From an uncultured virus (IMG/VR IMGVR_UViG_3300042385_000739) (taxonomy: Duplodnaviria > Heunggongvirae > Uroviricota > Caudoviricetes), in the IMG/VR virus record IMGVR_UViG_3300042385_000739, positions 1 to 64,000 of that record: a DNA stretch of 64,000 bases. One strand, given 5' to 3'. The notes under the pieces are model-generated. The model did not search any database and was not told the DNA's origin. It saw only the letters and a list, made by a program, of their open reading frames with translations. Both the position numbers and the translations under genes were made by a program. Position 1 is the stretch's first letter. Every line of letters starts with the position of its first letter. This document shows positions 2,513 through 47,081 of this stretch, one piece after another.

Positions 2513-2549
2513 AATGTTTCCTTTCTGCTTATTACTAAGCAATATGGTA

Positions 2550-14356: not shown

Positions 14357-14442
14357 TACTTCAAGCCTAAACTCTTGCAAATATGTGCTAGATGGATTTT
14401 GTCCGAGCTCGGTAAGCCCGTAATAAGAATACGTGGTGTCAT
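14356..14442 (-). pseudogene. 28-codon remnant of a P-loop kinase gene
   Basis: MTPRILITGLPSSDKIHLAHICKSLGLK resembles the hhhhGLPGSGKTxLA kinase start with a decayed Walker A; has an AGGA RBS and an upstream promoter. Confidence 0.5.
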
Positions 14443-14458
14443 ACTATTTCCTGTAAAA

Positions 14459-14466
14459 TATTTATA
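14459..14466 (-). promoter_or_regulatory. T4-type late promoter TATAAATA
   Basis: Exact T4 late consensus in an intergenic gap, in the gene orientation. Confidence 0.65.
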
Positions 14467-14490
14467 ATAGAGACAGTATAACCATTTATT

Positions 14491-14910: not shown

Positions 14911-14930
14911 TTTAAATGTTCCTTATATTA

Positions 14931-14938
14931 TATTTATA
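14931..14938 (-). promoter_or_regulatory. T4-type late promoter TATAAATA
   Basis: Exact consensus 20 nt upstream of ATG 14910. Confidence 0.65.
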
Positions 14939-14972
14939 TTAACTTTTCTTGTTTTTTTGTATAACTAAAATA

Positions 14973-17004: not shown

Positions 17005-17720
17005 GTTTTAAGTTTATCGTTACGTTCCGTAGTTCTACCGGTTAATGGTCTAGCTAGAATTGTAGTGTCAGTAGTTACGTTTATGTTTTTATCATAAGCG
17101 AACATACCTTGATGTGTAATATTAAACAAGTCTGCTCTCATCATAATATCTAACGGAGCACATATACCCATTTTTAATACGTGCGAGATTAAGTTCTTTG
17201 CCATTAATGGGTCTAATGCATATGCGTGGGCACGACAGATAAACAGATAATTAGGTCCTTCACTAGCGTGAGGTGGTATAGTTGGATGTATTTTCCATCC
17301 TTGCTCTGCCCACTCAGCACCGCCTAGGTAACATATTGAGTTAACTGAATCATATGAAGTAAACTTCTTAGTCATAATGCTATCGTGTTCTAAGATAACA
17401 ATAGGCTTATCAATCTTGGCGCAATGAACCCACAGGCTGATGTGACTTAATGCACAAGCAACTTCACCTCTAGTTAAGTAATGGTCTGTAATCTTTAGCA
17501 TTTTGATTACTGAATCACCTACGCTGTGGTCAGGTACTGTAATTTCAGAGCCAATGCCGTTGAAGGCATCCCATACTTTATATTGCATACCTACATTCAT
17601 ACAACTGAGTTGGCATCGTTTAGAATACCGTTCAGATGATTCATTACCTTTTACAGTAATGATGTAAGCGTGTTCTACTTCAAAATCACGTTTATAGAAT
17701 AAATTAAGATTTGTGTCCAT
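17001..17720 (-). CDS. GT25-family glycosyltransferase
   Basis: GEVACALSH..LW, VILEHD, AHAY, PLD motifs. Confidence 0.85.
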   Translation of the reverse strand: MDTNLNLFYKRDFEVEHAYIITVKGNESSERYSKRCQLSCMNVGMQYKVWDAFNGIGSEITVPDHSVGDSVIKMLKITDHYLTRGEVACALSHISLWVHCAKIDKPIVILEHDSIMTKKFTSYDSVNSICYLGGAEWAEQGWKIHPTIPPHASEGPNYLFICRAHAYALDPLMAKNLISHVLKMGICAPLDIMMRADLFNITHQGMFAYDKNINVTTDTTILARPLTGRTTERNDKLKT

Positions 17721-19425
17721 CTAATGCCCGTTTAAATTCACTGTAGTCAATACGACCAGGTTTGTGTACTTGAATTAACATTCTAGTTGATAATGCTACA
17801 TTATTCAAGTGATTTAGGGCATGAGTAAGTTCTTCTTGCGTTATTTTGCCATTAGATAGACGTTGTTGATATGGATCAGTATACTCAAACTGAGTATCAC
17901 ATACTTCGATATCAATATCTTCTTCAAATGCTAGTAATGAATCACTTTCACCTTTATTTGCTTTTTCAAACATATGACGTTTGTTAAACAAGTTAAACAT
18001 AGCAACAGTAATCAATCGTTTATGTGTTGGGTCATCTAATGCAGTATCACAGCGCCAATGTGGAGTTTGTATTTCCCAAACAGCACCATTCTCACTTACA
18101 CGATATAGTTCTTTAATAACATCAATGAAGTCTCTACCAGTTTCTCCTAGATGTTCTAATATATCTTTAGCTACAACGTGTGAGTATTCGTTGTCTTTCC
18201 ATGGCCAAGGTAGAACACTTAAATCAACCTGTTCATCGGCATCAATGAATGGTGATTTATCAACGTTAACAAATCCATCAAATTTCTTAAAGCCACAACC
18301 CAAGTTAAGTTTCTTAGTGACACGATCCTCATTTGGTTGATCGATATGTTTTAAGTTGAAACGTGCTTCTAGTGCAGTGTAAAGACTTTGGAATGTTGGG
18401 TCCCATTTCTTTGGATCTGTTTGTCTAAAGATTTGTACACATTTGTAGTATGGGCTTGTGTTAGCATCAGGTGAGCCTGGTGTCCACGTATGATACGGGA
18501 GTATAGGAACGATGACCCATGTTTCTTTACCCATTGCGGCTGCTAAGTGTGCTACACTTGTACAAGATGAGATAACGATATCCATATTAGCAATAGCTGC
18601 CATTGTATCTTCCCAGCTTAACAAGAAGTGTTGCAAGTCAGTTACATTTTCAGGTAGTTGAATAATGTTATGATCCTTTTGCAAACTATATACCTGTAGT
18701 TCATCATATTTTGCTAAGTTAGTGATAAAGTTCTCTGGAAACTTTCTAAATTGTTGATGTTCAAATTTAGGATTGCCTGCCCAACGAATACCAACTTTAA
18801 TTTTTTCGCTGTTGACGAATGTTTTCCAAATTTCAATACTATCAGCTTTAGCAGTTAGATAAGGATCGTTTGGAAAGTTTGAGAATTCGTGACCAGCTAC
18901 CCATCCGGCACTAAATCCAGGAACCCAATAATCATGAGGTACAGTATGTGATTGATTTCGTAGTATAACTTTATCTACACCTTCAATACGTTCAAATACT
19001 GATACTAGTTCAGGTGCACAAGCGATGTATACTGATTTTGCACCTTGTTTTTTAAAGCTAGTAGCAAAACGTGCGTGAATGATTTCATCTCCGTACCCAC
19101 CTTCTAGTGATACAATAATAGATTTATCGTTGATAGAATGTTTTTCTGGGTTAAAAATAGGTGCATCTGTTTTAAGAGGAGGGCTACCGTATACATTTAA
19201 GAAGCGACCATTCTCTAATAGTTGACAGCCTTTTCTATAGTCACCGTCTTGAATCATAAACCAACCACGGTTAAAGCAATGACGCATCCAAATATCTTCT
19301 GTATTTTGTCCTTTAGCGTCTACTATTTTTTCAGGGCCTATGTTTTCTAATTTATCTGATAATATTCTGGCTTCTAGATGTTTACCTTCTAATTGAAGCT
19401 TGAGCATCATATCTATTTCGTGCAT
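17704..19425 (-). CDS. Fusion of a GT9 (heptosyltransferase)-like GT-B domain and a C-terminal methyltransferase-like domain
   Basis: EGGYGDEI..RF, VGIRWAGNP, D.VISSCTSVAHLAAAMGK.TW, then KLNLGCG...NVD...ILEHL...DPTH. Confidence 0.78.
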   Translation of the reverse strand: MHEIDMMLKLQLEGKHLEARILSDKLENIGPEKIVDAKGQNTEDIWMRHCFNRGWFMIQDGDYRKGCQLLENGRFLNVYGSPPLKTDAPIFNPEKHSINDKSIIVSLEGGYGDEIIHARFATSFKKQGAKSVYIACAPELVSVFERIEGVDKVILRNQSHTVPHDYWVPGFSAGWVAGHEFSNFPNDPYLTAKADSIEIWKTFVNSEKIKVGIRWAGNPKFEHQQFRKFPENFITNLAKYDELQVYSLQKDHNIIQLPENVTDLQHFLLSWEDTMAAIANMDIVISSCTSVAHLAAAMGKETWVIVPILPYHTWTPGSPDANTSPYYKCVQIFRQTDPKKWDPTFQSLYTALEARFNLKHIDQPNEDRVTKKLNLGCGFKKFDGFVNVDKSPFIDADEQVDLSVLPWPWKDNEYSHVVAKDILEHLGETGRDFIDVIKELYRVSENGAVWEIQTPHWRCDTALDDPTHKRLITVAMFNLFNKRHMFEKANKGESDSLLAFEEDIDIEVCDTQFEYTDPYQQRLSNGKITQEELTHALNHLNNVALSTRMLIQVHKPGRIDYSEFKRALDGHKS

Positions 19426-19509: not shown

Positions 19510-22500
19510 TTACTTAGTAAACCCGAAGTGATTAAAGCCATTTGATACGGTCACTGCAGAGTAACCAACCGACGTAATTGCCGGTATTAATGGGCGATTG
19601 TCGTTGAATCCCCATTCGTATAATACATTGTTAGGATCTATGACAAAAGTACTATTAAAATTCGCAGATACCTGTGTCCAAGATGATGTACCAATTTGTG
19701 TAGGCACACTATACATATTAGGAGGAGTATATGCTTGATTAGTGCCTAATTGAACTGGGCTGGATTTAGAGATCCTATCATTTAGACCAAGTTGACCACT
19801 AGTATTAAGACCCCAAACATAAAGTTTGTTATCATTGCGAGTAGCCATCGATGAATTTATATTGGATCCACCTTTATTTAAATTAGTATATATAGAAGTA
19901 CCAAGTTGTACCGGAGCTGATCTAGATAGAATGTCTAATAATCCTAATTGACCATTAGCATTATTACCCCAAGTAAACAAATAGCCATCACTACGTATAG
20001 CAAATTGACTTGCACCAGTTGTTGAAGTGATAGTCCAAGAATCGGTTGCTGTGGGCAAGAATATTGGACTTAATGCAGATGTTACTGAATTAATTCCCAA
20101 TTCACCATTGGTATTAGTTCCCCAAGTATATAAACCATATAACTGATCTAATCCAATAGTAAATAGACCACCAGCTGAGACCATAGCCCATGAACTTGTA
20201 CCAATTTGTATTGGGCTTGATTTTGAAATTATTGTACTATCCCCTAATTGACCACTAGTACCTAATCCCCATGTAAATAATAAGTTATCGCTACGTACAC
20301 CAGCCATATAGTTTACACCAGAACTAACAGATGTCCAACTAATAGTGCCTAGTTGTACCGGACTACTTCTTAGTATCACATCGTTTGTTCCTAGTTGTCC
20401 GCTAGCATTATTTCCCCAAACATATAATAGTCCATCACTAGTAATGGCTGCTGTTGCAACACTACCGGCTGAAATAATACTCCAGCTATTTGTACCTATT
20501 TGCACAGGACTACTTCTGCTTAATATAGCATTGTCACCTATTTGACCATTAGTACCAAGTCCCCACATAAATAGTGCACCATCACTACGTATTGCACCAC
20601 GTGATGTATTTTTAGAAATACTTGTCCAAACAGTACCAACGCCAATTTGTACTGGACTACTACGAGAGACTGTATCATTTTGTGCTAATTCACCGTTTGT
20701 ATTAATACCCCAAGCCCATAGTTTATTAGTAGCATCAAGAGCCATAAAGTTTGCAAGACCTGTTGATGAAGATACGGTGGTCCAACTACTTGTACCAACT
20801 TGTACTGGACTACTACGATGTACTAAATTATTTGATGCTAGTTGTCCTGATGCGTTATCACCCCAAGTAAACAATCCACCGTCAATACGAATAGCGACGG
20901 TTGATGTAGTAAATAAACCAACAGCAGTCCAAGAGCTTGTGCCAATTTGTACTGGACTGCTACGAGATATTGTATCATTTAGACCTAGTTGTCCACTAGT
21001 ACCTAAACCCCACATAAACAATGCACCGTCACTACGAATGGCAGCACTAGTAGACAGTCCAGTTGATATTGTATTCCAGCTTAAGGCTGCAGGTTTGCTT
21101 GTAGTAGTCAAGTATGTCTGTTGTATCTCTGCACTTGTGAATGAATTTACTTGTACTGGACTAGACCTATTAGCAATGGATCTATCTCCTAATTGTCCAC
21201 TAGCATTACCGCCCCAAACATATAATAAATTATTTGTATTAATTGCAGAAGTTGAGCTTTGTCCAGCACTTACTATATTCCAGCTTGTACCAACTTGAAC
21301 TGGACTACTGCGGGATAATACTGTAGTATCTCCAAGTTGTCCTGTAGTATTAATACCCCAAGTAAACAATCTATTATCAGATGTAATTCCACCCACAAAA
21401 GTTACGCCTGCACTTATTTGTGCCCAACTACTTGCGCCAATTTGTACCGGAGCAGATCGAGATATGATAGTAGTATCACCTATTTGACCACTAGCGTTAA
21501 GACCCCAAGCAAATAACAAGTTATCAATACGTATACCATATGATGTAGTTCCACCTGAGCTTACTGCATTCCATGACTCATTTATTGATCGGATAAATAC
21601 TGGACTACTTCTGGCTCCAAGAGATTCACTTAATCCAAGCTGTCCATTATTATTTTGTCCCCAAATGAAAAGTTGATTATCAGTATAAGTCAACGCCATA
21701 GTTACTCCAGGAGACGTGCCTATACTAACCTGTGACCAACTGCTTGTACCAATTTGTACTGGACTACTACGAGGTAATATTGTATTGTCTCCTAGTTGAC
21801 CATTAGTATTAATACCCCAAGACCAAAGAGTGTTGTCAAGACGTAAGGCAGTGGTTGTAGCAAATCCAGTTGATATAACAGACCAACTGCTTGTACCAAT
21901 TTGTACTGGACTACTACGAGGTAATATTGTATTGTCTCCTAGTTGACCATTAGCATTAATACCCCAAGACCACAGTGTAGAGTTAGTTCGGATAGCCATA
22001 GCATACGACAGTCCGGCTGACACACTAGACCAACTGCTTGTACCTATTTGTACTGGACTACTGCGTGGCACGATAGTAGTTGATCCTAATTGTCCACTAG
22101 TATTATCTCCCCAGGAGAAAAGAGCACCATCCAAACGTATAGCATATACACTTACATCTCCGGCACTAACCTTTGTCCAACTACTTGTACCAACTTGTAC
22201 AGGACTACTACGATGTAGTATAGTGCCATCACCTAATTGTCCGGCGTTATTATTACCCCAAGTAAACAATGCACCATCACTACGTATTGCACCAACACAA
22301 GCCAGAGTACTTACAAGAGTTCCTGTTGCAACACTTCCTGAAACTATAGTCCAGCTACTTGTACCAACTTGTACAGGACTACTGCGATGTACTAAGTCAT
22401 TTTGACCTAATTGTCCTATTGTATTTAATCCCCATGACCACAACGTATTATCATTACGGATTGCATACATTGCATTATTGCCTATTGATATCTGAGACCA

Positions 22501-25500
22501 GCTAGTTGTACCCAATTGTATTGGACTATTTGTATTAACAGTCGAATTTTGTCCTAGCTGTCCAAATGAATTAATTCCCCAAGTAAACAATGCTCCGTCA
22601 CTACGTATTGCCGCTGAACTCCCAATAGACCCACCTGCATTGATTTTGGTCCAACTGAATCCTGTTTTACCGGTAGCAGTTAAGTAAGTACTTTGTAGAG
22701 TGTTATTTGTAAATGAACTAATTTGTACTGGGCTACTCTTGTTAGCCACAAACAGTTGACCAAGTTGTCCACTAGCACCTGCACCCCAACCATATAATAC
22801 GTTGTCTGCGGTTAATGCTAAAGTTGTAAAGTCGGTTCCTGCTGTTATTCCACCTGCACTAACAGTAGTCCAACTACTTGTACCTATTTGAACTGGGCTA
22901 CTACGATGTAATATAGTGTCATCACCCAAATTACCAACTGCGTTATTACCCCAAGTAAATAGTGCACCATCACTACGTATACCTGCAAAATGTCCGGCTG
23001 AGCTAGATAATGCAGTCCAACTATATGCGGTAAACGTATTAGCGGCAGGGTTACCCCAACCATACAATTTGTTATTTGTCTTTATACCTACATTATGGCT
23101 ATAACCTGCACTAATTTTACTCCATGTATCTCCTGTGATTTGTGTAGGCATTGGTTGGTAGCTAGCAATTTGTACTGGACTAGATTTACTTACTACAGTA
23201 TTATCACCAATAGCGCCGTAGCTAGCACCCGAACCCCAACCATAAAACAATAGATTACCATCGAGCACACCGTAACTATTAGTAGATCCAGTACCAATTA
23301 TAGACCAACTACTTAAACTTACTAATGTTGGGCTAGATGTAGCAACAACAGAGTTAATACCTAATTCTCCGCTGCCGTTACCACCCCAAGTATATAGTAA
23401 CTTAGTAGAAGTTAACCCTACCATATGGCTTTGACCAACAGTAATTTGTGACCAGCTACTTGTACCAAGTTGGGTTGCACTACTACGGTGGACTAGATCA
23501 CCTAAACCTAATTGTCCATTAGCATTTTGCCCCCATACAAATAATAAACTATCACTGCGTATTGCAGCCGCAGTGTTTACATTCATTGATACTTGTGACC
23601 AAGACTCATTAGCAGTACGAATGAACACCGGGCTAGTAGATTGTGTAACAGTATTATTGCCTATTGCACCAACAGCATTTTGCCCCCATACAAATAATTG
23701 CCTGCTTGTGTTATCTATAGCTGCCGTATTAATATATAATCCACTAACCTTATACCAAGTACTAGTACCAATTTGTACCGGACTAGATCGGGAGATAGCA
23801 GTACTATCTCCTAATTGACCGTTTGTGTTTAGTCCCCAGCCCCATAATGTATTATCACTACGAATAGCAACTGAGTATTGATTACCTGCGTTAACACTTG
23901 TCCAACTACTAGTACCAATCTGTACTGGACTACTTCTAGGGAGAACATTAGTTAAACCTAAACCACCATTAGTATTAATGCCCCATGACCACAATGTATT
24001 ATTGTTTAGTAGTCCTACCATGTGTGAGTAACCAACTGCTATTTGACTCCAACTACCTGCACCAAGTTTTACAGGACTAGATTTACTTACTACGGTATTA
24101 TCACCTAACTGTCCGTTTGTATTAATTCCCCAAGTGAATAGTCCGCCGTCACTACGCAATGCGGCAGTTATAGCACCATTAGTACTAACCTGTGTCCAAC
24201 TACTTGTACCAACTTGTACAGGACTACTACGAGCTACAAGATCACCTAGTCCTAGTTGACCACTAGCATTAATTCCCCAGGCAAATAAAGCACCACCAAG
24301 TCGTATTGCAGTTACAGTCGATATCCCTGCCGCAACACTTGTCCAACTACTAGTACCAATCTGTACTGGACTACTGCGTGGCAATACATCAGTTGTACCT
24401 AATTGTCCACTAGTATTTAGACCCCACACAAATAATGCTCCATCGTTACGTATAGCATATGTAGAAAAATCTCCCACTGCTACCTGAGTCCAACTGCTTG
24501 TGCCAATTTGTACTGGACTACTACGATGGATGATAGTATTATCTCCTACACCGCCGTTGTTATTAGTTCCCCACGTGAATAATGCTCCATCATTACGTAT
24601 GGCTGCAGTCATACCATTTACACCACCGGAGCTTATTACAGACCAACTAAATGTTGTTGTTCCAGTTGCAGTTAAATAACTATTTTGCTGTGCAAGAGAA
24701 TATATCGATCCTACTTGGGTTGGACTACTTTTATTGACAGTATCATTTAAACCAAGACCACCGATGCCGTTAATACCCCATGTAAATAACAAACCATCAC
24801 TACGTATACCAGCCATAGTTGTAGCTGCCTTACTATTAATTAAAGTCCAACTACTTGTACCAATTTGTACTGGGCTACTTCTACTAAGTATTGTACTATC
24901 CCCTAGTTGACCACTAGTACCTAATCCCCAAGTCCATAAACTACCATCATTACGTATAGCCCCAAGTCCACCTACTTTACTCCAAGTAGTATCGGTACCA
25001 ATTTGAACTGGACTACTGCGGTGGACTAAATCATTTAACCCTAAATATCCGTCAGTGTTGTTACCCCAAGCCCACAATGTACCATCACTGCGTATAGCTG
25101 TAGTCCAAGATGTTTCCGAATTAACCTGTATCCAACTACTAGAACCAACTTGTACTGGACTGCTTCTATGAAATATATCACTCAGTCCTAATTGTCCAGA
25201 TTCGTTAGCTCCCCAAGTCCATAAACTACCGTCACTACGAATACCAGTGAATCGTAAATTTTGTCCAGTCAATATTGACCAAGATGTTGGAGAATTAACC
25301 GGCAATATAAAGTTTGTGGGACTTAATGTTGGATTATATGGCCATTGTTGATATTGTAATCCCCACCCATACAATGTATTATCTGATGCAATAGCAAGTG
25401 AATGTACGTTGCCAGCACTTATTTGTGACCAACTACTAGTACCAAGTTGTACTGGACTACTACGATGTAATCCCTCATTATTTACCTGATATGAACTATT

Positions 25501-28500
25501 ATTACCCCAGGCAAATAATTTATTAGTACTAGAAATAGCAAGCACGTGACTTATACCTGCACTAACTTGTGACCAACTGCTAGCACCTATTTGTGTTGGG
25601 CTATTTGAGTATGGTGTTGCACCAACTTGTACTGGGCTACTACGATGTTCTAACCAACTACCTGATATAGTTGTTGGATTAAATGCTAATCCTAGTGCTC
25701 CATTAGTGTTATTACCCCATATATATGCTATACCAGTAGTTGTGATTGCATTGGTTATTCCTGAACCGGCAGCACTAACACTTGCCCAGTCGCTATTATT
25801 ACCTATTTGAGTAGGATATGATTTACTAGTTGTAGAATTATCACCCAACTGTCCAAAAGTTGTATTAATTCCCCAAGTAAATAGTTTTCCATCGGATCTA
25901 ATAGCTGATGACAAGCTTTGTCCAGCGCCAACGCTAATCCAGGAATCATTCATTGAGCGAATGAATACCGGGCTACTGCGGCTGGTAATTCCTAATATAC
26001 CCAATTCTCCACTAGTACCAAGTCCCCAAGTAAATAATGCGTTACCTGTATCGGCTGCAGTAATACCTAAAATGTTAGTATAGCCAGTTACCATTGTCCA
26101 ACTATTTGCACCAATTTGTACAGGGAATGATTTAGCAACTGTGGTACCATCACCCAATGATCCAGCAGTATTATTTCCCCAAGCAAACAGTAAACCATCA
26201 CTTCGTATTCCTGATAATCCTGCAACAACTGTACCAATTGCAGTCCAAGAATCTGCTACTGAACGAATGAATACTGGGCTGGATCTACCGGCAACAACAC
26301 CATTACCAATAACGCCATCCCCACCTGCAGTAGTTCCCCATGTAAACATTTGCCCATTTGCATCAAGTGCGACTATTGCACTACCTGCATTAACGGTAGT
26401 CCAACTACTTGTACCTGTAGTAAGTGTTGGACTAAAATATGTGTTCACTAGTGAGTTATTACCAAACTGTGCATTAGCTCCACTACCCCACATATATAGT
26501 AAATTACCACTTATACCGGCTGTGACTGTGCCGCCTGCAGTTACTACACTCCAACTACTTGTACCAATTTGTACAGGACTACTACGATGTTGGGTAGAAT
26601 CCGGAGTTCCTAACACACCACTAGTACCTGCACCCCAAGTGAATAATGAACCATCACTGAGAATTGCTACTGTCCATGATAAACCAGATGCTACTGCAGT
26701 CCAACTGCTACTACCAATTTGTACTGGGCTACTACGATTTAGAGCAGTGCCATCACCTAGTTGTCCAAATGTGTTTACTCCCCATGCATATAATGCGCCA
26801 GTAGTACGTATAGCATTACTTCTATTATTTGCAGAATAAACTTTTGACCATGTGTTTTCAGTACCGATTTGTACTGGACTACTACGAGCTACTACTGTGT
26901 TTAATCCCAGTTGACCTACATCATTAGCACCCCAACTCCATAATGTACCATCACTACGAACCGCTAATACTGTACCGCCGGTAGTGTTAAACGGTCCTGT
27001 TGCAACAGCAGTCCAACTACTTGTACCAACTTGTACCGGGCTACTACGATGAGCCTGTGTACCATCACCTACAGTACCTGCAGTGTTAACTCCCCAAGTC
27101 CATAATGTATTATCACTACGTATGGCAGCCGTGAATGATGCTCCTGCTGATACTGTCAACCAGCTATTAGTACCAACTTGTACAGGACTACTACGATGCA
27201 CTATGTCATTTAGACCTAATGCGCCATTGATGTTATTACCCCATGCAAACAATAAGCCGTCATTACGAATAGCAAACATTGTATTATTGGTATTTACCAC
27301 AGTAGACCAACTGTAACCAGTCTTACTTGTCTTTGTCAAATATGCCTGTTGTTCTGCAGGTGAAGAGAACGAAACAATTTGTACAGGGCTATTACGAGCA
27401 ACTACAGTTCTATCCCCTAATGCACCACCTGAACCAGAACCCCACGTGTACAATGTATTGTTAGCCATTATACCTGCTGTTGTACCAGATGCTTGTGTAG
27501 CAACAATATTCCAATTACTTGTACCAAGTTGTACAGGGCTACTGCGTGAAATTGAGTCACCGATGCCAAGCTCACCGGCTGTATTTAATCCCCATGCAAA
27601 TAATTTACTATCAGTTCGTATTGCAAATGTGCTGTTACCATTTGCTGTTACTAATGTCCAGCTGTTACCCGTACCTACTTGTACTGGGCTACTTCTAGCG
27701 ATAATATCGTTTACTCCAAGATTACCAGAACCATTGACTCCCCAACCATATAATTTTCCATCCAACGTAATAGCAAAGGTAGATGTAGCGTTAGTTGTAC
27801 TATTAGATGGTACAACTGACCAACTACTTGTGCCTAGTTGAACTGGGCTACTACGATGTACTAAATCATTTAGACCAAGTTGACCATTAAAATTGCCACC
27901 CCAAACAAATAATAGTCCGTCACTTCTAATAGCGTAAGTATGGCTTATGCCAGCAGCAATACCACTCCAATTACTTGTTCCTATTTGTACCGGACTACTT
28001 CTGTGTAGAATATCATTTAAACCAAGTTGTCCGATACTGTTAGTTCCCCATGCAAATAACTTACTATCGCTACGAATAGCAAATGAAGTAGATGCACCTG
28101 CGGTTACTGTAGTCCAACTCAATGTTCTAGGTTTACCTGTACTAGTTGACCAAGCAATTTCATCAGCTAATGTAATTAGTGATGAAATTATTACAGGTAA
28201 TAAGATTGTTCCTGGAGCATTACCTGTACCCAATTGACCATTATCATTATTGCCCCAACCGTATAAAACATTGTCCATGGTTAAAGCTAATGTATGAGTA
28301 GAGCCGGTGCTTATCATAGTCCAGCTACTTGTACCAACTTGTACTGGACTTGATTTTAGTATGACGGTGTTGTCCCCCAATTGACCAACATCATTATTAC
28401 CCCATGACCATAATGTTTTATCATTACGAATGGCCGCGGTAAATGTATCACCCTGTGCAACTTGGTACCAAGTATTAATAGTTGCATTTACTTGCACTGG

Positions 28501-31500
28501 GCTACTAGTATCTACTACACTGTTAATACCTAATTCACCGACTGTATTACCGCCCCATGCGTATAAATACCCATTACCATTAGTGTAGTCCTGTATTATT
28601 CCCATGCGTCCAGCAACCATAGTCCAACTACTTGAACCAATTTGTACTGGACTAGATTTATTTACAATTGAGTTGTCACCTAATCCACCATACGTATTAT
28701 TACCCCAAGTAAATAAGGCTCCATCACTTCTTATTGCAGAAACAACGTATGCATTTCCAATATCACCAGATTGTCCTGCACTAACCATAATCCAGCTACT
28801 TGTACCAACCTGTACTGGACTACTGCGATGTACTGTGTCATTAAGGCCCAATTGTCCTTGGCTATTAAGTCCCCATGACCACAAATAATTATTAGTGTCA
28901 ATACTAAAAGCATTACCGAAGCCTGCCGCTAGTTGTTTCCAACTACCGGTACCTATTTGTACTGGACTACTTCTATTAATACCATCATTCTCTCCTAACT
29001 CCCCTACGGTATTTTTACCCCATGACCACAATGTTCCATCTAATCGTATACCATAGGACGATGAATCCAATCCTGACACCGCTGAGGTCCAAAGTAAATT
29101 ACCAATCTGTACTGGACTACTACGAGCTACAACAGTATTATCTCCTATTTGTCCTGAATTATTGAAACCCCAAGCCCATAACGTACCATCAATACGTATA
29201 GCGATGGGAGTTAGTCTTCCAGCAGAAACCATATTCCAGCTACTTGTACCAACCTGTACAGGACTACTTCTGAGAAGACCACTAACGTTTGCACCTAATG
29301 CACCTAATGAATTATCAGTTCCCCATGACCAAAGTGATTTGTCACTACTACGTATAGCAAATAAAAATCCTTGTCCAGCACTAACCATAGTCCAACTACT
29401 AGTACCAATCTGCACAGGGCTACTACGATGTATTTGATTATTTGTACCTAATTGACCGTATGTATTACTACCCCAAGACCATAAACTACCATCACTTCTT
29501 ATGCCTGCCGCAGTTTGTGTGCCATCTACTGGCATACTAGATCCTGATAGATATGTCCAACTTAATAAATCTTTACCTAACTGTATTGGTTGGGATCTAT
29601 TTATAACATTATTTTGTCCTAATTGACCACTAGTCCCTAGACCCCAAAGCCAAAGTGTATTATCATTACGTATACCAGCGACATGGTTTGAGTTAAAACT
29701 TCCTTCACCTATACTTGTCCAAGAATCATTCATAGAGCGAATGAATACAGGTGTAGACATAGTTACCATGTTACCGTCACCTATTTGGCCGTCAGTACCA
29801 ATACCCCAAGTATATAATTGACCGGCTGAAGTAATACCCATACCGCCTGATGACCCAGCCGGTACTATAGTCCAACTACTAGTAGTAACTTGTAATGGTA
29901 ATGATTGGTTACCTGGGTTGCCACCTAACGCACCAAATCCATTATATCCCCATCTAAATAACAAACCATCACTACGCACAGCTCCATATTCATCTGTACC
30001 TGAACTTACATAAGTCCATGAATCAAATATACCTGCACGAATAAATACTGGGCTAGAACGTTGCAATATAGTATTATCACCTACACCACCTTGTGTGTTG
30101 CCTGCCCAAGTAAACAACACACCGTTACTATCTATTGCAGTAGCTCCATTAACAAAAGTCCAACTACTACTACCTATTAGTACTGGGCTGTTTTTATTAG
30201 CAGTTGTATTATCACCCAATTCGCCGTTAGTATTTAAACCCCAAGCAAACAATGCACCATCATTACGTATTCCATACATAGTAGATGTCCAACTGTTGAC
30301 ATAATTCCATGTATTAGTTCCAACTTGTACGGGACTGCTACGATGCACTGAACTGGCTGCCCCTAATTGACCAGACCCATTAGCCCCCCAAGTAAACAAT
30401 GCACCATTACTACTTATAGCACCAGTGAATGACCCGCCTAACGCAACCATAGTCCAACTACTTGTGCCTAGTTGAACTGGGCTACTACGAGCTACTGCAT
30501 CATTAAATCCTAACTGCCCCAGTGTATTATCACCCCATATAAATAAAGCACCGTCTGTTCGTATGGCAGCTAAATTTGTACCAAAATTAGTGCCGCTTGC
30601 TACCATAGTCCAACTACTACTACCAACTTGTACCGGACTACTTCGATTTACTGCGTCATTTAGTCCTAATTGGCCTACTGTATTAGCTCCCCAAGCCCAT
30701 AAACCACCGCCACTTTTAATAGCGGCCATCGGTCCTATGGATGATCCGGATGCTAGTTTTATCCAATCAGTATCAGTACCGACCTGTACCGGGCTACTGC
30801 GATGTATTTGATTATTTTGTCCTAATGAACCTTCATCATTACGACCCCATGTCCATAATGTTCCATCTATTTTGATTGCGGCTGCATATGATGTGCCTCC
30901 AGCAATTGCAGCCCAACTACTTGTACCGATTTGCACAGGGCTACTACGATGTACTAAATCATTTAGACCTAATTGTCCTATAGTATTTTGTCCCCATGAA
31001 AATAACAATCCATCACTACGTAATGCCAATCTAGTATTACTACCTGTAGTAAATGTCAAATTGGCTACAGTAGTCCAACTAAGCGGTGTTACTCCTATGG
31101 TAGTTAAATATGTTTGTTGTTGTGCTGATGTTCTAATTGAAGTTATTTGTACTGGACTACTTTTGTTTATCCCCAGTCCTTCACCAAGATAGGTACCTGT
31201 GCCCCAAGAATACAACGCACCATCTGTAGTTATTCCCATTGTGACACTTGTTCCACTAGTGACCATAGTCCAACTACTTGTACCAATTTGTATTGGGCTA
31301 GATTTTGCAACTAATGTGGTGTCACCCAATTGACCATTAGTATTAACACCCCACGTAAATAAGTTACCTGTAGTAGTTATGGCGGCGGTCATGCCAGAAC
31401 CAGCACTGACCATAGTCCAACTACTTGTGCCTAGTTGAACTGGACTACTGCGATGTACACCAACGTCATTGAGACCTAATTGTCCATTAGTGTTATTTCC

Positions 31501-32664
31501 CCAAACCCATAATGCACCGTTTGTGTCTATGGCAGCAACGTTATCCTGACTAACCGCACCGTTAGTTATTACTTTACTCCAAATAGTAGCGGTACCAACT
31601 TGTACTGGACTACTTCTATTAATAATGTTATTTGATCCCAACTGCCCGGCTGCATTATACCCCCATGACCACAAAGTATTGTCTGCTCGTATTGCAAGTG
31701 TAGCAAATCCGTTAGCAGATACGCTAGACCAACTGCTAGTACCAACTTGTACTGGGCTACTACGTCTAACAATATCATTTAATCCCAAATTACCATAAGT
31801 ATTAAGTCCCCAAGCAAATAATGCACCATCATTTCTTATAGCAAACATTGACCATGCGGCACCATACGATACTGCTGTCCAACTAAGTTGTGTAGTAGCT
31901 ATACTAGATACATATGACTGTTGGATTTGAACTGAAGTTAATGAACCAGTTAAGGTAGGGCTTGAAAGATTATTTGTATTATTATTACCTCCTTGCCCTT
32001 GACCAGCACTACCCCATACCCACAGTGTACTATCAGAACGTAGTGCTGTGCGTGTTGTTCCGCCACTTCCGCCTAATGCAGACCAAGTACTTGTACCAAT
32101 TTGTACTGGACTACTGCGATGTACTGTGTCATTAAGGCCCAATTGTCCTTGGCTATTAATACCACCGATAGCCCACATTGTACCATCAGATTCTATACCT
32201 ATAGTATTTCCGGCCAGTACTTGAGTCCAACTGTTTGCCGCCCAAGATGATAACATACTATTATTACCAAGTTGACCGTTAAACCCTAATCCCCAAGCAA
32301 ACATTAATCCATCATTATTAATAGCATAAGAAGTATCACCGTTAGTACTAACCGCACTCCAATTATTAACACCTATCTGTACTGGGCTACTACGATGTGC
32401 TAATGTAAGATCATTATTGCCTAATTGACCATATGTATTGGCGCCCCATCCAAATAGTTTACCGTCACTACGAATACCTATAGTATGACTTAATCCACTT
32501 GCAACTTGGCTCCATGATTGTGTACCGATTAATACTGGACTAGATTTAAAAACTGTATTTTCTGTTCCGAGTTGACCCCAAGTGTTGTCACCGAACATAT
32601 ATAATGATTCAATATCACCGCCGGTTGATGGTTGGACTGTTAATAACCATTTTTCTAATAACAT
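19510..32664 (-). CDS. Giant RCC1/BLIP-II repeat beta-propeller protein, 4384 aa, 84 blades (12 x 7); putative virion adhesin
   Basis: About 50-aa repeats W-x-x-V-S-A-G...AIRSDG-x-L-F/W-x-WG-x-N-x-x-GQLG...RSSPVQIGTSS; 84 blades counted by hand. Confidence 0.9.
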   Translation of the reverse strand: MLLEKWLLTVQPSTGGDIESLYMFGDNTWGQLGTENTVFKSSPVLIGTQSWSQVASGLSHTIGIRSDGKLFGWGANTYGQLGNNDLTLAHRSSPVQIGVNNWSAVSTNGDTSYAINNDGLMFAWGLGFNGQLGNNSMLSSWAANSWTQVLAGNTIGIESDGTMWAIGGINSQGQLGLNDTVHRSSPVQIGTSTWSALGGSGGTTRTALRSDSTLWVWGSAGQGQGGNNNTNNLSSPTLTGSLTSVQIQQSYVSSIATTQLSWTAVSYGAAWSMFAIRNDGALFAWGLNTYGNLGLNDIVRRSSPVQVGTSSWSSVSANGFATLAIRADNTLWSWGYNAAGQLGSNNIINRSSPVQVGTATIWSKVITNGAVSQDNVAAIDTNGALWVWGNNTNGQLGLNDVGVHRSSPVQLGTSSWTMVSAGSGMTAAITTTGNLFTWGVNTNGQLGDTTLVAKSSPIQIGTSSWTMVTSGTSVTMGITTDGALYSWGTGTYLGEGLGINKSSPVQITSIRTSAQQQTYLTTIGVTPLSWTTVANLTFTTGSNTRLALRSDGLLFSWGQNTIGQLGLNDLVHRSSPVQIGTSSWAAIAGGTSYAAAIKIDGTLWTWGRNDEGSLGQNNQIHRSSPVQVGTDTDWIKLASGSSIGPMAAIKSGGGLWAWGANTVGQLGLNDAVNRSSPVQVGSSSWTMVASGTNFGTNLAAIRTDGALFIWGDNTLGQLGFNDAVARSSPVQLGTSSWTMVALGGSFTGAISSNGALFTWGANGSGQLGAASSVHRSSPVQVGTNTWNYVNSWTSTMYGIRNDGALFAWGLNTNGELGDNTTANKNSPVLIGSSSWTFVNGATAIDSNGVLFTWAGNTQGGVGDNTILQRSSPVFIRAGIFDSWTYVSSGTDEYGAVRSDGLLFRWGYNGFGALGGNPGNQSLPLQVTTSSWTIVPAGSSGGMGITSAGQLYTWGIGTDGQIGDGNMVTMSTPVFIRSMNDSWTSIGEGSFNSNHVAGIRNDNTLWLWGLGTSGQLGQNNVINRSQPIQLGKDLLSWTYLSGSSMPVDGTQTAAGIRSDGSLWSWGSNTYGQLGTNNQIHRSSPVQIGTSSWTMVSAGQGFLFAIRSSDKSLWSWGTDNSLGALGANVSGLLRSSPVQVGTSSWNMVSAGRLTPIAIRIDGTLWAWGFNNSGQIGDNTVVARSSPVQIGNLLWTSAVSGLDSSSYGIRLDGTLWSWGKNTVGELGENDGINRSSPVQIGTGSWKQLAAGFGNAFSIDTNNYLWSWGLNSQGQLGLNDTVHRSSPVQVGTSSWIMVSAGQSGDIGNAYVVSAIRSDGALFTWGNNTYGGLGDNSIVNKSSPVQIGSSSWTMVAGRMGIIQDYTNGNGYLYAWGGNTVGELGINSVVDTSSPVQVNATINTWYQVAQGDTFTAAIRNDKTLWSWGNNDVGQLGDNTVILKSSPVQVGTSSWTMISTGSTHTLALTMDNVLYGWGNNDNGQLGTGNAPGTILLPVIISSLITLADEIAWSTSTGKPRTLSWTTVTAGASTSFAIRSDSKLFAWGTNSIGQLGLNDILHRSSPVQIGTSNWSGIAAGISHTYAIRSDGLLFVWGGNFNGQLGLNDLVHRSSPVQLGTSSWSVVPSNSTTNATSTFAITLDGKLYGWGVNGSGNLGVNDIIARSSPVQVGTGNSWTLVTANGNSTFAIRTDSKLFAWGLNTAGELGIGDSISRSSPVQLGTSNWNIVATQASGTTAGIMANNTLYTWGSGSGGALGDRTVVARNSPVQIVSFSSPAEQQAYLTKTSKTGYSWSTVVNTNNTMFAIRNDGLLFAWGNNINGALGLNDIVHRSSPVQVGTNSWLTVSAGASFTAAIRSDNTLWTWGVNTAGTVGDGTQAHRSSPVQVGTSSWTAVATGPFNTTGGTVLAVRSDGTLWSWGANDVGQLGLNTVVARSSPVQIGTENTWSKVYSANNRSNAIRTTGALYAWGVNTFGQLGDGTALNRSSPVQIGSSSWTAVASGLSWTVAILSDGSLFTWGAGTSGVLGTPDSTQHRSSPVQIGTSSWSVVTAGGTVTAGISGNLLYMWGSGANAQFGNNSLVNTYFSPTLTTGTSSWTTVNAGSAIVALDANGQMFTWGTTAGGDGVIGNGVVAGRSSPVFIRSVADSWTAIGTVVAGLSGIRSDGLLFAWGNNTAGSLGDGTTVAKSFPVQIGANSWTMVTGYTNILGITAADTGNALFTWGLGTSGELGILGITSRSSPVFIRSMNDSWISVGAGQSLSSAIRSDGKLFTWGINTTFGQLGDNSTTSKSYPTQIGNNSDWASVSAAGSGITNAITTTGIAYIWGNNTNGALGLAFNPTTISGSWLEHRSSPVQVGATPYSNSPTQIGASSWSQVSAGISHVLAISSTNKLFAWGNNSSYQVNNEGLHRSSPVQLGTSSWSQISAGNVHSLAIASDNTLYGWGLQYQQWPYNPTLSPTNFILPVNSPTSWSILTGQNLRFTGIRSDGSLWTWGANESGQLGLSDIFHRSSPVQVGSSSWIQVNSETSWTTAIRSDGTLWAWGNNTDGYLGLNDLVHRSSPVQIGTDTTWSKVGGLGAIRNDGSLWTWGLGTSGQLGDSTILSRSSPVQIGTSSWTLINSKAATTMAGIRSDGLLFTWGINGIGGLGLNDTVNKSSPTQVGSIYSLAQQNSYLTATGTTTFSWSVISSGGVNGMTAAIRNDGALFTWGTNNNGGVGDNTIIHRSSPVQIGTSSWTQVAVGDFSTYAIRNDGALFVWGLNTSGQLGTTDVLPRSSPVQIGTSSWTSVAAGISTVTAIRLGGALFAWGINASGQLGLGDLVARSSPVQVGTSSWTQVSTNGAITAALRSDGGLFTWGINTNGQLGDNTVVSKSSPVKLGAGSWSQIAVGYSHMVGLLNNNTLWSWGINTNGGLGLTNVLPRSSPVQIGTSSWTSVNAGNQYSVAIRSDNTLWGWGLNTNGQLGDSTAISRSSPVQIGTSTWYKVSGLYINTAAIDNTSRQLFVWGQNAVGAIGNNTVTQSTSPVFIRTANESWSQVSMNVNTAAAIRSDSLLFVWGQNANGQLGLGDLVHRSSATQLGTSSWSQITVGQSHMVGLTSTKLLYTWGGNGSGELGINSVVATSSPTLVSLSSWSIIGTGSTNSYGVLDGNLLFYGWGSGASYGAIGDNTVVSKSSPVQIASYQPMPTQITGDTWSKISAGYSHNVGIKTNNKLYGWGNPAANTFTAYSWTALSSSAGHFAGIRSDGALFTWGNNAVGNLGDDTILHRSSPVQIGTSSWTTVSAGGITAGTDFTTLALTADNVLYGWGAGASGQLGQLFVANKSSPVQISSFTNNTLQSTYLTATGKTGFSWTKINAGGSIGSSAAIRSDGALFTWGINSFGQLGQNSTVNTNSPIQLGTTSWSQISIGNNAMYAIRNDNTLWSWGLNTIGQLGQNDLVHRSSPVQVGTSSWTIVSGSVATGTLVSTLACVGAIRSDGALFTWGNNNAGQLGDGTILHRSSPVQVGTSSWTKVSAGDVSVYAIRLDGALFSWGDNTSGQLGSTTIVPRSSPVQIGTSSWSSVSAGLSYAMAIRTNSTLWSWGINANGQLGDNTILPRSSPVQIGTSSWSVISTGFATTTALRLDNTLWSWGINTNGQLGDNTILPRSSPVQIGTSSWSQVSIGTSPGVTMALTYTDNQLFIWGQNNNGQLGLSESLGARSSPVFIRSINESWNAVSSGGTTSYGIRIDNLLFAWGLNASGQIGDTTIISRSAPVQIGASSWAQISAGVTFVGGITSDNRLFTWGINTTGQLGDTTVLSRSSPVQVGTSWNIVSAGQSSTSAINTNNLLYVWGGNASGQLGDRSIANRSSPVQVNSFTSAEIQQTYLTTTSKPAALSWNTISTGLSTSAAIRSDGALFMWGLGTSGQLGLNDTISRSSPVQIGTSSWTAVGLFTTSTVAIRIDGGLFTWGDNASGQLASNNLVHRSSPVQVGTSSWTTVSSSTGLANFMALDATNKLWAWGINTNGELAQNDTVSRSSPVQIGVGTVWTSISKNTSRGAIRSDGALFMWGLGTNGQIGDNAILSRSSPVQIGTNSWSIISAGSVATAAITSDGLLYVWGNNASGQLGTNDVILRSSPVQLGTISWTSVSSGVNYMAGVRSDNLLFTWGLGTSGQLGDSTIISKSSPIQIGTSSWAMVSAGGLFTIGLDQLYGLYTWGTNTNGELGINSVTSALSPIFLPTATDSWTITSTTGASQFAIRSDGYLFTWGNNANGQLGLLDILSRSAPVQLGTSIYTNLNKGGSNINSSMATRNDNKLYVWGLNTSGQLGLNDRISKSSPVQLGTNQAYTPPNMYSVPTQIGTSSWTQVSANFNSTFVIDPNNVLYEWGFNDNRPLIPAITSVGYSAVTVSNGFNHFGFTK

Positions 32665-32667
32665 ATT

Positions 32668-33177
32668 TTAACCACCAAACATAGGCCAAATAATATTAAA
32701 AGGATCTGTCTGCGTAGTAATATCTGCTAATGCTTGCATATATGCATCCATTAATGTTAAATCATCTACAGTGGGTTCACCTAATCTAAGTTGTCTATCA
32801 TATCGAGTGTATCGCCATTCAAAATCTTTCATCTTTGTATCACGTTCACCTCTTATCAAATTCCATTGATCTCTAGTACGTAGTTCTTGTTGTAGCTGTA
32901 TATCTTCAGGCGAGGGTTCGTATATCACTGATTTAGGTAGCTCAATAATATCCATTGTTTCATACGCAACACCATCAGTAAAATACTGTCTAGGATTATC
33001 TATTTTTTGTGTTTCTGGATTATATTCAGGGTATGCTTTTACTAATGTATACCAACCAAATGATAAACGTTCTTCTTCTGTAAGTGCATAAAAATTACTG
33101 ATATTTTTCCAATTATTTGGAATAAGGTCGTATACACCTTCTATATTACCGTCAACAATATGAGCATAATTAGCCAT
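32668..33177 (-). CDS. Tail fibre assembly chaperone-like protein
   Basis: C-terminal W..IR.ERD....FEW...Y.QALADIT.Q.DPF.I.WP motif. Likely start ATG 33177 (TAATG overlap). Confidence 0.72.
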   Translation of the reverse strand: MANYAHIVDGNIEGVYDLIPNNWKNISNFYALTEEERLSFGWYTLVKAYPEYNPETQKIDNPRQYFTDGVAYETMDIIELPKSVIYEPSPEDIQLQQELRTRDQWNLIRGERDTKMKDFEWRYTRYDRQLRLGEPTVDDLTLMDAYMQALADITTQTDPFNIIWPMFGG

Positions 33178-33569
33178 TATAAATTTTGTCCTGAAACAAA
33201 TGCCTGCCAATTTATACCACCATCAGTAGTAAAAAAGGTGAATACATCTTCTTTGTTATTACTTGATGTTAATGTAGGAGCAGTTCCTCCTGGCCAGTGA
33301 AAGCTAGCAGGCCAAGTAACTGAACGAGCAGTACCATCAGCAGTGAAAACTAGTACAAATGAACTTGCTCTACCTGCTGATTGTATGTTAGAGAATGTGA
33401 TAGATGTGATGTTAGAATTTAAAGCGACATTGAATACAGTAGCGATGTTTAAATTTAGTGCTAAAACGCCGGCACTAATAGTAGCAGTCGCACTAACTTC
33501 TGCTGAATTGTTTGGTAAAAATACCTTATTGTCGTCAATTACGGTCGACCCGATTACTTTAATTGCCAT
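33177..33569 (-). CDS. Small beta-rich virion/fibre adaptor-like protein
   Basis: 130 aa with RSVTWP...WPGGTAPTLT...DVFTF.T.DGG.NW; AAGGAG RBS. Confidence 0.6.
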   Translation of the reverse strand: MAIKVIGSTVIDDNKVFLPNNSAEVSATATISAGVLALNLNIATVFNVALNSNITSITFSNIQSAGRASSFVLVFTADGTARSVTWPASFHWPGGTAPTLTSSNNKEDVFTFFTTDGGINWQAFVSGQNL

Positions 33570-33596: not shown

Positions 33597-33604
33597 TATT
33601 TATC
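33597..33604 (-). promoter_or_regulatory. T4-like late promoter (GATAAATA)
   Basis: Overlaps the stop of the upstream fibre gene, 27 nt before ATG 33569. Confidence 0.5.
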
Positions 33605-47073: not shown

Positions 47074-47081
47074 TTTATACC

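Follow-up and report, generated by a model that had tools for sequence, protein, structure and literature searches.

The locus and its RCC1 gene

The window analysed here is a stretch of 64,000 nucleotides, positions 1 to 64,000 of IMG/VR record IMGVR_UViG_3300042385_000739 from an uncultured virus of the Caudoviricetes, and its subject is one very large gene at 19510..32664 on the minus strand, whose product is built of RCC1-type β-propeller blades. The record as a whole has 76,916 bases and is estimated to be 22% complete, which gives a genome of about 350 kb, and a 66%-identical orthologue sits on a contig of 347,736 bases. Every gene in the window is on the minus strand. The gene in question is a single open reading frame (ORF) with an ATG start that lies 3 nt past the stop of an upstream chaperone-like gene, and it specifies 4384 amino acids (aa; 456 kDa, 14% Ser, 13% Gly, 11% Thr and one Cys) with an isoelectric point (pI) of 6.5 and Lys and Arg together making up only 4% of the residues. 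RCC1 repeats were the only Pfam families found in the protein, PF00415 (RCC1) in 67 stretches with 1631.8 bits against a cut-off of 21.7 and the whole-domain model PF25390 (RLD) in 21 stretches with 2121.1 bits against a cut-off of 150, so that with its repeats of about 50 aa it belongs to the RCC1-repeat family by matches above the curated cut-offs.

Blades, segments and junctions

A blade hidden Markov model (HMM) built from the 4384-aa protein itself gave 86 hits, which comprise 83 Trp-starting units, an N-terminal half unit (residues 18-50) and short orphan fourth strands. In the phase adopted, W..V.AG, ..AIR.DG,.LF.WG.N..GQLG and RSSPVQIGTSS correspond to strands A, B, C and D, respectively. 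The N-terminal half unit consists of strands C-D only and the C-terminal half unit, 15 aa long, of strands A-B, with three short orphan D strands between them. The total is 84 blades, 83 full and one divided between the two termini, which is the number given in a preliminary description made from the letters of the window alone.

That description had also parsed the blades into twelve groups of seven nested four levels deep, 1+3+6+2, and this parse was reproduced exactly, with the boundaries of the three first-level inserts and the three strands that resume after them holding in the residue map. The group termed root has seven blades and carries B (residues 146-2351, positions 25612-32229), C (residues 2462-3170, positions 23155-25281) and D (residues 3216-4310, positions 19735-23019). 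The blades of B are arranged 2+1+2+2 around the children B1, B2 and B3, of which B1 (5+2) contains B1a and B3 (5+2) contains B3a; C is 4+3 and contains C1; D is 2+3+2 and contains D1 and D2. The resulting 31 segments, with the basis for each assignment in brackets, are as follows.

32614..32664, minus: N-terminal tag MLLEKWLL.. and spacer, residues 1-17 (invariant in five orthologues)
32230..32613, minus: root segment 1, with blade 1 strands C-D, blade 2 and blade 3 strands A-C, residues 18-145 (blade HMM; model contacts to the C-terminus)
31936..32229, minus: B blades 1-2, residues 146-243 (blade HMM, junctions)
31882..31935, minus: entry linker to B1, residues 244-261 (26-residue junction; conserved in orthologues)
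31132..31881, minus: B1 blades 1-5, residues 262-511 (blade HMM, junctions)
31078..31131, minus: entry linker to B1a, residues 512-529 (junction length)
30019..31077, minus: B1a, seven contiguous blades and FIR-type exit, residues 530-882 (blade HMM, junctions, parser)
29722..30018, minus: B1 blades 6-7 and PVFIR exit, residues 883-981 (blade HMM, junctions)
29560..29721, minus: B blade 3, residues 982-1035 (blade HMM, junctions)
28471..29559, minus: B2, seven contiguous blades with two +2 borders that have neither helix nor FIR, residues 1036-1398 (junctions)
28177..28470, minus: B blades 4-5, residues 1399-1496 (blade HMM, junctions)
28117..28176, minus: entry linker to B3, residues 1497-1516 (junction length)
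27364..28116, minus: B3 blades 1-5, residues 1517-1767 (blade HMM, junctions; register 6/6 against contiguous propellers)
27310..27363, minus: entry linker to B3a, residues 1768-1785 (junction, orthologue alignment)
26248..27309, minus: B3a, seven contiguous blades, residues 1786-2139 (blade HMM, junctions, parser)
25942..26247, minus: B3 blades 6-7, residues 2140-2241 (blade HMM, junctions)
25612..25941, minus: B blades 6-7, residues 2242-2351 (blade HMM, junctions)
25282..25611, minus: root segment 2, with blade 3 strand D, blade 4, blade 5 strands A-C and a 25-aa exit loop, residues 2352-2461 (blade HMM, homologues)
24700..25281, minus: C blades 1-4, residues 2462-2655 (blade HMM, junctions; collinear with P0036)
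24646..24699, minus: entry linker to C1, residues 2656-2673 (junction; P0036 alignment)
23602..24645, minus: C1, seven contiguous blades, residues 2674-3021 (blade HMM, junctions, PDB search)
23155..23601, minus: C blades 5-7, residues 3022-3170 (blade HMM, junctions)
23020..23154, minus: root segment 3, with blade 5 strand D and blade 6 strands A-C, residues 3171-3215 (blade HMM, model)
22708..23019, minus: D blades 1-2, residues 3216-3319 (blade HMM, junctions)
22654..22707, minus: entry linker to D1, residues 3320-3337 (junction; helix in the low-confidence D model)
21574..22653, minus: D1, seven contiguous blades, residues 3338-3697 (blade HMM, junctions; internal one-blade DNA repeat)
21136..21573, minus: D blades 3-5, residues 3698-3843 (blade HMM, junctions)
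21079..21135, minus: entry linker to D2, residues 3844-3862 (junction; P0006 has a canonical junction in place of the linker)
20038..21078, minus: D2, seven contiguous blades, residues 3863-4209 (missing as a unit in orthologue P0006)
19735..20037, minus: D blades 6-7, residues 4210-4310 (directly after D blade 5 in P0006)
19513..19734, minus: root segment 4, with blade 6 strand D, blade 7 and blade 1 strands A-B, residues 4311-4384 (model contacts)

Junction length was taken, by regular expression, as the span between the strand D Pro and the Trp that follows; the expression mis-measured the junctions at residues 1786 and 3181 and returned nothing at 146, 2088, 3071 and 3216. Sixty junctions are canonical (52 of 8 residues, seven of 9 and one of 7) and only 16, all inside B, C or D, have 10 residues or more. 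Seven of these long junctions are linkers of 26-27 residues with the pattern '..QQ.YLT..GKT..SW', another seven have 10-11 residues and are of the 'PVFIR..DSW' type, and the last two, each of 10 residues, flank B2 (residues 1036-1398). All 16 pair as balanced brackets, each enclosing seven blades of its own level. For the seven brackets that combine a helical linker with an FIR-type exit, an automatic parser returned 7, 7, 7, 7, 7, 7 and 7 in P0001, P0003 and P0005 alike, whereas 2,000,000 random draws of linker position, in which the linkers stayed in their order, never yielded a seven in every bracket. The junction grammar is real, and far beyond chance.

A root propeller very probably completed only after its inserts

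The root blades that start at residues 102, 2412 and 3181 stop after strand C, and the orphan D strands at 2352, 3171 and 4317 come 2206, 709 and 1095 residues later, that is after 42, 14 and 21 blades. For three root blades the outer strand is thus supplied only after complete propellers have been inserted, and an arrangement of beads on a string would not explain blades that regain it only hundreds of residues later.

Relatives at the same locus have the same framework at smaller size. The gene order of fibre, chaperone of about 166-180 aa, RCC1 protein, 573-aa protein and glycosyl-/methyltransferases is conserved, and the RCC1 protein in that position has 700 aa in the cultured Synechococcus phage BUCT-ZZ01, 1059 aa in L021-L023, 1407 aa in L020, 4048 aa in P0006 and 4367-4388 aa in P0003-P0005, L016 and L019; no form of intermediate size, from 1407 to 4048 aa, turned up when such forms were scanned for. 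The 1059-aa form (L021, at 1034-4210, L022 and L023) has the same N-terminal tag, half blades and root, with seven-blade inserts in blades 3 and 6 and with root blade 5 uninterrupted; it has an entry in the ESM Atlas, where no model for it was found. The 1407-aa form of L020 has seven-blade inserts at the same three root sites, the one in blade 5 being where C sits. Blade-by-blade orthology between the inserts of L020 or L021 and the parents B, C and D was not resolvable, with only the truncated root blades finding partners.

An ESMFold2 complex model was made from four root fragments (residues 1-145, 2350-2461, 3169-3215 and 4309-4384), each aligned with four orthologues. It scored 0.67, compared with 0.02 for the best of three controls, and the mark applied is one that 116 of 157 solved complexes reach, as do two of 215 mismatched pairs; contact agreement between runs was at least 63% and partner pLDDT (predicted local distance difference test) at least 61. 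Modelled contacts of residues 22-23 with 4381-4382 would close the ring through the last 15 aa, and contacts of 3198-3202 with 4322-4329 would complete blade 6 past D. Seven blades were counted in all twelve groups; for the root there is in addition this predicted assembly of its fragments. The earlier proposal that the last 15 aa furnish the missing half of root blade 1 fits both the complementary halves and the modelled contact. Closure of the 2+2 kind, in which N-terminal strands C-D and C-terminal strands A-B form one blade, is seen as such in the model only, the two halves in the sequence being complementary; it is a rare type that a published account attributes to RCC1-like domains (PMC8458387).

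Two considerations temper the use of this model. Its calibration differs from the conditions here, where four chains and custom alignments were used, and the pass may merely mirror likeness to an RCC1 ring, since RCC1 propellers have already been solved. The result for the root pieces is one that supports their binding to each other and does not show it. With the broken blades themselves and the relatives in which they are found, nesting at the level of the root is very likely.

Probable inserts at blade junctions

At the lower levels, as parsed, the child follows strand D of one parent blade and precedes strand A of the blade after it. Helical entry and FIR exit occur together in seven of seven children, with the remaining child, B2, having neither, and both motifs are largely invariant in five orthologues (59-69% identity). 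Their co-occurrence is expected of nesting, as the two linkers of one child would meet in space.

The 4048-aa orthologue P0006 is without 367 residues that correspond exactly to an entry linker, D2 and its exit, and in pairwise alignment its D blade 5 continues into the homologue of D blade 6 via a canonical 'GTSSW' junction. Blades that are neighbours in P0006 are therefore parted by a seven-blade unit in the 4384-aa protein. P0036 (3039 aa, 37% identity, same root ends) reads 4+[4+[7]+3]+3 with like linkers, after which the root resumes, and holds a further linker-7-exit unit; its inner 4+[7]+3 unit can be aligned with C collinearly through the two linkers (48% identity). P0043 has one linker-7-exit unit and a plain seven-blade insert in root blade 6.

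Comparison of blade register gives a partial picture. With whole blades, a shift of zero was best in 29 of 55 propeller pairs, compared with about one in seven by chance, and with blade cores against the six contiguous propellers B3 was in register in 6/6 comparisons and B1 in 3/6. Whole-propeller identities (40-57%) were also considered, and did not separate nested from consecutive units.

Several observations count against extending the nesting below the root. Because no strand is orphaned at these sites the case is weaker than that for the root. Blade-core register is weak for C (2/6), D (2/6) and B (1/6), with contiguous pairs themselves at 6/15. An AlphaFold2 model of D (residues 3216-4310, five-row alignment) had a mean pLDDT of 36.1 and a predicted template modelling score (pTM) of 0.40 and is unusable as a structure; that its only two helices are the two entry linkers is weak evidence. 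B2 is defined by two +2 junctions alone and is the least certain assignment. Blade totals that are multiples of seven also permit consecutive rings. The 14-blade relatives (the 700-aa protein of BUCT-ZZ01, L024 6001-8103, and P0279-P0281) have N- and C-terminal half blades and canonical junctions alone, and P0004 has a +4 junction within C1; because of these a long junction cannot be taken, as a law, to signal a change of ring. In the 14-blade proteins the sequence cannot tell two rings from one large ring. The 14-blade gene of BUCT-ZZ01 is annotated 'BNR repeat domain protein'.

A rival arrangement is one in which only the root is nested and the blades of B, C and D re-register into consecutive seven-blade rings (C as 4+3 and 4+3), the linkers being decorative and the protein having three beaded arms. 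Each first-level insert is indeed a multiple of seven blades, propeller identities are about 45-52% under either arrangement, and the 14-blade relatives imply that a change of ring needs no special linker. What such an arrangement leaves unexplained is the pairing of all 16 long junctions at an own-level distance of seven, the constant co-occurrence of helix and FIR, the exact loss from P0006 of linker, seven blades and exit with a canonical join of D5 to D6, and the operation of the same rule in the differing arrangements of P0036 and P0043; in addition, every insertion event would need new ring-closure interfaces. It is judged unlikely.

Less probable still, to the point of being very doubtful, is that there are no seven-bladed rings, the blades forming larger rings, of 14 for example, or an open superhelix resembling a β-solenoid. 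In principle each of the 14-blade proteins, closed once between its N- and C-termini and unbroken inside, could be one large ring, but the solved RCC1-like domains matched are all single seven-bladed propellers, the quantum of seven recurs in the family inserts and in the P0006 indel, and the root fragments that assemble in the ESMFold2 model total seven blades.

To return to nesting throughout, the junction grammar, one exact indel and the independent arrangements of two relatives argue for it indirectly at all eight lower-level inserts, and the full tree of twelve rings is regarded as likely. For the fold put forward in the preliminary description, then, the root part is well supported, on blades completed after their inserts, on a homologue with an intact blade 5 and on the ESMFold2 assembly, with the support for the lower levels being indirect.

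Recursion across the family

Recursion by mid-blade insertion alone can be read by eye in P0122 (1807 aa), where there are five propellers at four levels, all inserts are unambiguous and each ring has seven blades. Its root has one insert in blade 1 and a chain of three others, each in the blade 4 C-D loop of the previous one, with a doubled D strand wherever the chain returns.

In a survey of 234 proteins outside the close orthologues, full blades were counted from a truncated blade to the next orphan strand. Runs of seven were found in 62 cases and of six in 39, compared with three runs of seven in the reversed control; lengths one to five and eight accounted for 31, 33, 20, 14, 20 and 10 cases, respectively, and zero for 142, these being split HMM hits. 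At least one clean seven-blade insert interrupting a blade is present in 46 of the 234 proteins. A stack parse gave an own-level count of seven in 83 inserts and six in 55, with a clean insert in 54 of 232 proteins and ten that are two deep, though the automatic procedure is noisy and missed the depth of P0122. Plain tandem forms, such as P0127, also occur. When long junctions in distant relatives were surveyed automatically the outcome was noisy, with runs of one to three blades dominating and a small bump at seven, and over all proteins the junction grammar gave 15 brackets of seven versus 14, 11, 16 and 14 of one to four, respectively. P0007 (2605 aa, on a contig of 8979 bp) has a permuted segment order and was set aside as a probable chimera. 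Matches to the C region at E ≤ 1e-30 come from about 28,000 cluster representatives.

The record with the 12-propeller form is estimated to be 31% complete at 110 kb, for a total of about 350 kb, and that with the 4-propeller form 58% complete at 99 kb, for a total of about 170 kb (G001/G002, the records behind L012 and L027). In this small sample the size of the RCC1 protein increases with that of the genome.

Integrity and occurrence of the gene

An ORF of this length in a repetitive region could be suspected of being an assembly artefact, the more so as short-read contigs break within the gene. Among contigs of four further lake-water runs none spanned it, and one lake-water run had two low-support joints, with sides of 21-25 letters, that are taken as repeat artefacts. 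Set against this, all 30 bins of the gene are covered by contigs from those four runs with 0-2 letter differences per listed piece, a 100%-identical gene is present on six independent viral contigs, three of them with it at full length, and the frame and architecture are retained, collinearly, in orthologues of 56-69% identity. DNA repeats within the gene are at most about 81% alike. In light of the six identical contigs, the orthologues and the four-run coverage, an artefact is dismissed, its chance being practically negligible. Twenty lake-water metagenome runs contain 96% or more of the words sampled from the gene (query window 19510-29509), 15 of these runs being flagged as possible sources, and the phage recurs in lake water.

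Within D1 there is a 147-nt tandem repeat in the DNA, one blade period long (window 21734-22105, 2.5 copies, 81% matches, blades 4-6). It points to blade-level conversion or duplication within a ring that still counts seven.

A megablast search of the window against phages gave no match, and scans of the window for tRNA genes and Rfam families found none of either. No terminator-like site was found 3′ of the RCC1 gene. As regards the host, psbA was sought in two related fragments and not found, and the large subunit of ribonucleotide reductase, at most 59% identical to Xanthomonas phage proteins, is uninformative.

Neighbourhood and possible function

Immediately upstream of the RCC1 gene are genes for a chaperone of the Phage_tail_APC type, a 130-aa ORF resembling a fibre tip and a 966-aa fibre with an S74 chaperone domain, and farther upstream are LamG-rich, Gly-rich and fibre-like giants. 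The gene thus lies in a tail-fibre module beside a fibre and an assembly chaperone, and synteny extends to L020, L022, BUCT-ZZ01 and S-SRM01: the cultured cyanophage BUCT-ZZ01 has the same gene order, and in S-SRM01 the RCC1 genes come immediately after that for the distal long-tail-fibre subunit. Between orthologues the variable positions are in the A-B hairpin and the C-D loop (27-50% identity per column), with strand D, 'RSDG' and the D-A turn conserved; each ring would therefore have a single variable face, formed by these loops. Among the virion proteins tabulated for the jumbo coliphage phAPEC6 are single RCC1-like ones (PMC7247149). From the gene context, a multivalent host-binding head on the virion would be the favoured role.

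The preliminary description had suggested display on a fibre, a suggestion to which the gene neighbourhood lends support. The domain by which such display might be expected to occur is missing, and this tells against it: an N-terminal domain about 100 aa long, with 29-59% identity, is common to five fibre-like ORFs of the window, and the RCC1 protein is without it, only the 17-aa tag preceding its first strand. The five ORFs, each with the common N-terminal domain, are as follows.

33600-36500, minus: fibre-like ORF, 966 aa
41536-45741, minus: fibre-like ORF, 1401 aa
48368-54163, minus: fibre-like ORF, 1931 aa
59070-60107, minus: fibre-like ORF, 345 aa
60173-63523, minus: fibre-like ORF, 1116 aa

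Their occurrence suggests that several different fibres are mounted via one kind of adaptor. The tag of the RCC1 protein, M-[LI]-L-x-K-W-L-L with an Ala/Pro/Ser spacer, is invariant in five orthologues, and by a loose regular expression a like tag is present in 29 of 245 family proteins, with sizes from 1059 to 4852 aa, and in none of the other ORFs of the window; a search of the N-terminal 35 aa against cultured phages gave no match.

Were the architecture as described, the protein might nonetheless be packaged inside the head or act on DNA instead of being an external adhesin. PHROGs places the family, by name, in nucleotide metabolism, an ordering of DNA is proposed for the RCC1-like proteins of phAPEC6 (PMC7247149), the fibre N-terminal domain is absent, and the short conserved tag could be a targeting signal. 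The name, on the other hand, is transferred from eukaryotic RCC1 by similarity, and the Ran binding and exchange and the chromatin binding of RCC1 proper would not be expected of a phage protein; four phage lineages have the gene flanked by a fibre/chaperone pair and a sugar-modification cassette; every blade has one face that is fast-varying between orthologues; in relatives the repeats are fused to ConA-like/LamG and Gly-rich domains, found also in neighbouring virion-type proteins; and the pI is 6.5, with Lys and Arg at only 4%. An internal or DNA-directed role is accordingly held to be improbable.

The downstream cassette (window 12576-19425, minus strand) encodes the 573-aa protein, in which no Pfam family was found, a GT25 enzyme, two S-adenosylmethionine methyltransferases, two GT2 enzymes and a UDP-galactopyranose mutase. 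The 573-aa protein is 49-77% identical to the protein whose gene follows that for RCC1 in L020, L022 and BUCT-ZZ01; the corresponding genes of S-SRM01 are for a sulfotransferase, a glycosyltransferase and a sugar epimerase. One idea is that the cassette may glycosylate Ser/Thr/Asn-rich virion proteins.

The 130-aa ORF (window 33177-33569) matches the C-terminal end of long fibres (2061 aa in L020, 575 aa in L022 and 1168 aa in BUCT-ZZ01) and is here a separate small gene behind the S74-ending fibre. Two Gly_rich_2 (PF21722) proteins (window 46171-47993) account for a peak of guanine plus cytosine of 0.487, and a PF21722 domain also ends the 4808-aa RCC1 protein P0028. In each of two giants (window 36554-41200 and 54197-59059) there are six ConA-like/LamG (PF13385) domains, and the two share a C-terminal motif; a domain of PF13385 type is inserted in the RCC1 relatives P0036 and P0043, and PF13385 and RCC1 are combined in many family members.

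Relation to known propellers

Domain insertion is usually of one level and joins unlike domains. The I-domain of integrin alpha is one domain inserted in a propeller. Sequence searches of the PDB returned only ordinary single RCC1-like domains. Human RCC1, UVR8, the RLDs of HERC1 and HERC2, RPGR and BLIP-II are of the same repeat family (E 1e-25 to 1e-39) and have seven blades; they are single rings or, as in HERC2, separate rings on a string, and none of them has a propeller within a propeller. UVR8, which from the alignment we take to start at strand A, would resemble the children here in that respect.

The closest topological parallel is from another family. In the crystal structure of Trm734, the yeast WD40 subunit of the Trm7-Trm734 tRNA methyltransferase, the seven-bladed propeller BPB is inserted between c7 and d7 of BPA (PMC6847430). 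Only on the return of the chain is BPA completed, and the last propeller is made whole by a strand from the N-terminus, the chain topology being that of the root inserts described above. Trm734 differs in being a eukaryotic WD40 protein of three propellers with nesting of one level, and it has no linkered inserts at blade junctions, no recursion and no branching. Neither the WD40 repeats nor the triple propeller with its partner cleft is found here, where the repeats are RCC1; the phage protein resembles Trm734 in topology and is not a member of the WD40 family.

Insertion at blade junctions has a precedent in UBR5, the RCC1-like domain of which is described, in a preprint, as discontinuous, with inserts after blades 1 and 4 (bioRxiv 10.1101/2022.11.03.515015). 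The blade junctions of the RCC1-like fold therefore tolerate insertion, though as presented there the UBR5 inserts are of one level, a UBA domain in a loop of about 300 aa and two small β domains, and not propellers. Among phage proteins, the crassvirus muzzle gp44 is a tail protein with a seven-bladed propeller that has domains between blades 2 and 3 and within blade 3 (PMC10172136); these are Ig-like rather than propellers and are not recursive. The available text on phAPEC6 reports eleven RCC1-like proteins, some of them in the virion proteome (PMC7247149), which are single propellers of about 41 kDa, with a role in ordering DNA suggested by the authors and nesting not described in that text. 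Giant proteins of Oscillospiraceae, with RCC1 repeats over their whole length and predicted to be extracellular, differ in being bacterial, and no ring topology is described in the part of the report at hand (bioRxiv 10.1101/2023.11.21.568195).

No propellers nested beyond one level, and no RCC1 propeller within an RCC1 propeller, were found in the literature searched, subscription journals being outside its scope; the words 'inserted', 'insertion', 'nested' and 'phage' are all absent from the text of Pereira & Lupas 2022. The earlier statement that no described protein is like this one holds for recursion over four levels, for which no published description was found, and has to be narrowed in that insertion of a propeller in a blade at one level is already known from the solved Trm734 and non-propeller inserts in UBR5 are on record.

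A proposed branched protein built by self-insertion

The explanation favoured is that, in a structural protein of a lake-water phage of about 350 kb, complete seven-bladed RCC1-type propellers have been inserted into one another again and again. The root propeller would close in RCC1 fashion, the C-terminal 15 aa providing blade 1 strands A-B and the N-terminal segment strands C-D, and in each of root blades 3, 5 and 6 the loop from the third strand to the fourth would bear a propeller, B, C and D, respectively. As these would begin at strand A and end at strand D, the two ends of an insert would be adjacent. B, C and D would in turn bear eight more propellers where one blade joins the next. 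A conserved helical entry linker of 18-20 residues and a 'PVFIR..DSW' exit would bracket seven of them, two of which would bear a fourth level. One chain would then form a branched cluster of twelve rings with both termini in the root, each ring presenting one fast-evolving face of A-B and C-D loops. Made beside a tail fibre and an assembly chaperone, the cluster may be a multivalent host-binding head on the virion, where the tag may hold it. Taken whole, this explanation of a nested twelve-ring binding head on the virion has a good probability of being correct, with the ring membership of lower-level blades, the location in the particle and the binding function being the parts that we infer.

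A broader proposition, to which somewhat better than even chances are given, is that phages have a general and reusable grammar in which seven-bladed RCC1 propellers with meeting ends are spliced into a strand loop of any other such propeller or, via a dedicated helix/FIR joint, between its blades, the product being again insertable. The forms of 700, 1059, 1407, 4048 and 4384 aa at one syntenic locus would then reflect stepwise growth from two to at least twelve rings and four levels, the architecture would be self-similar and the host-binding head multivalent and rapidly re-tunable.

If the favoured explanation is right, a natural protein will have arisen by recursive self-insertion of a single fold, branched and four levels deep, for which the series of sizes at one locus and the conserved joints, which resemble reusable connectors, provide support. 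Closed rings with adjacent termini would be insertable units, a new design principle for multivalent binders that protein engineers could use, and the protein would pose a distinct folding problem in having twelve rings to close though most of them are interrupted. Proteins of this kind would also be likely to form a major class among those by which phages of fresh and marine waters recognise their hosts. For phage genes such as these, the database name 'regulator of chromosome condensation' misleads.

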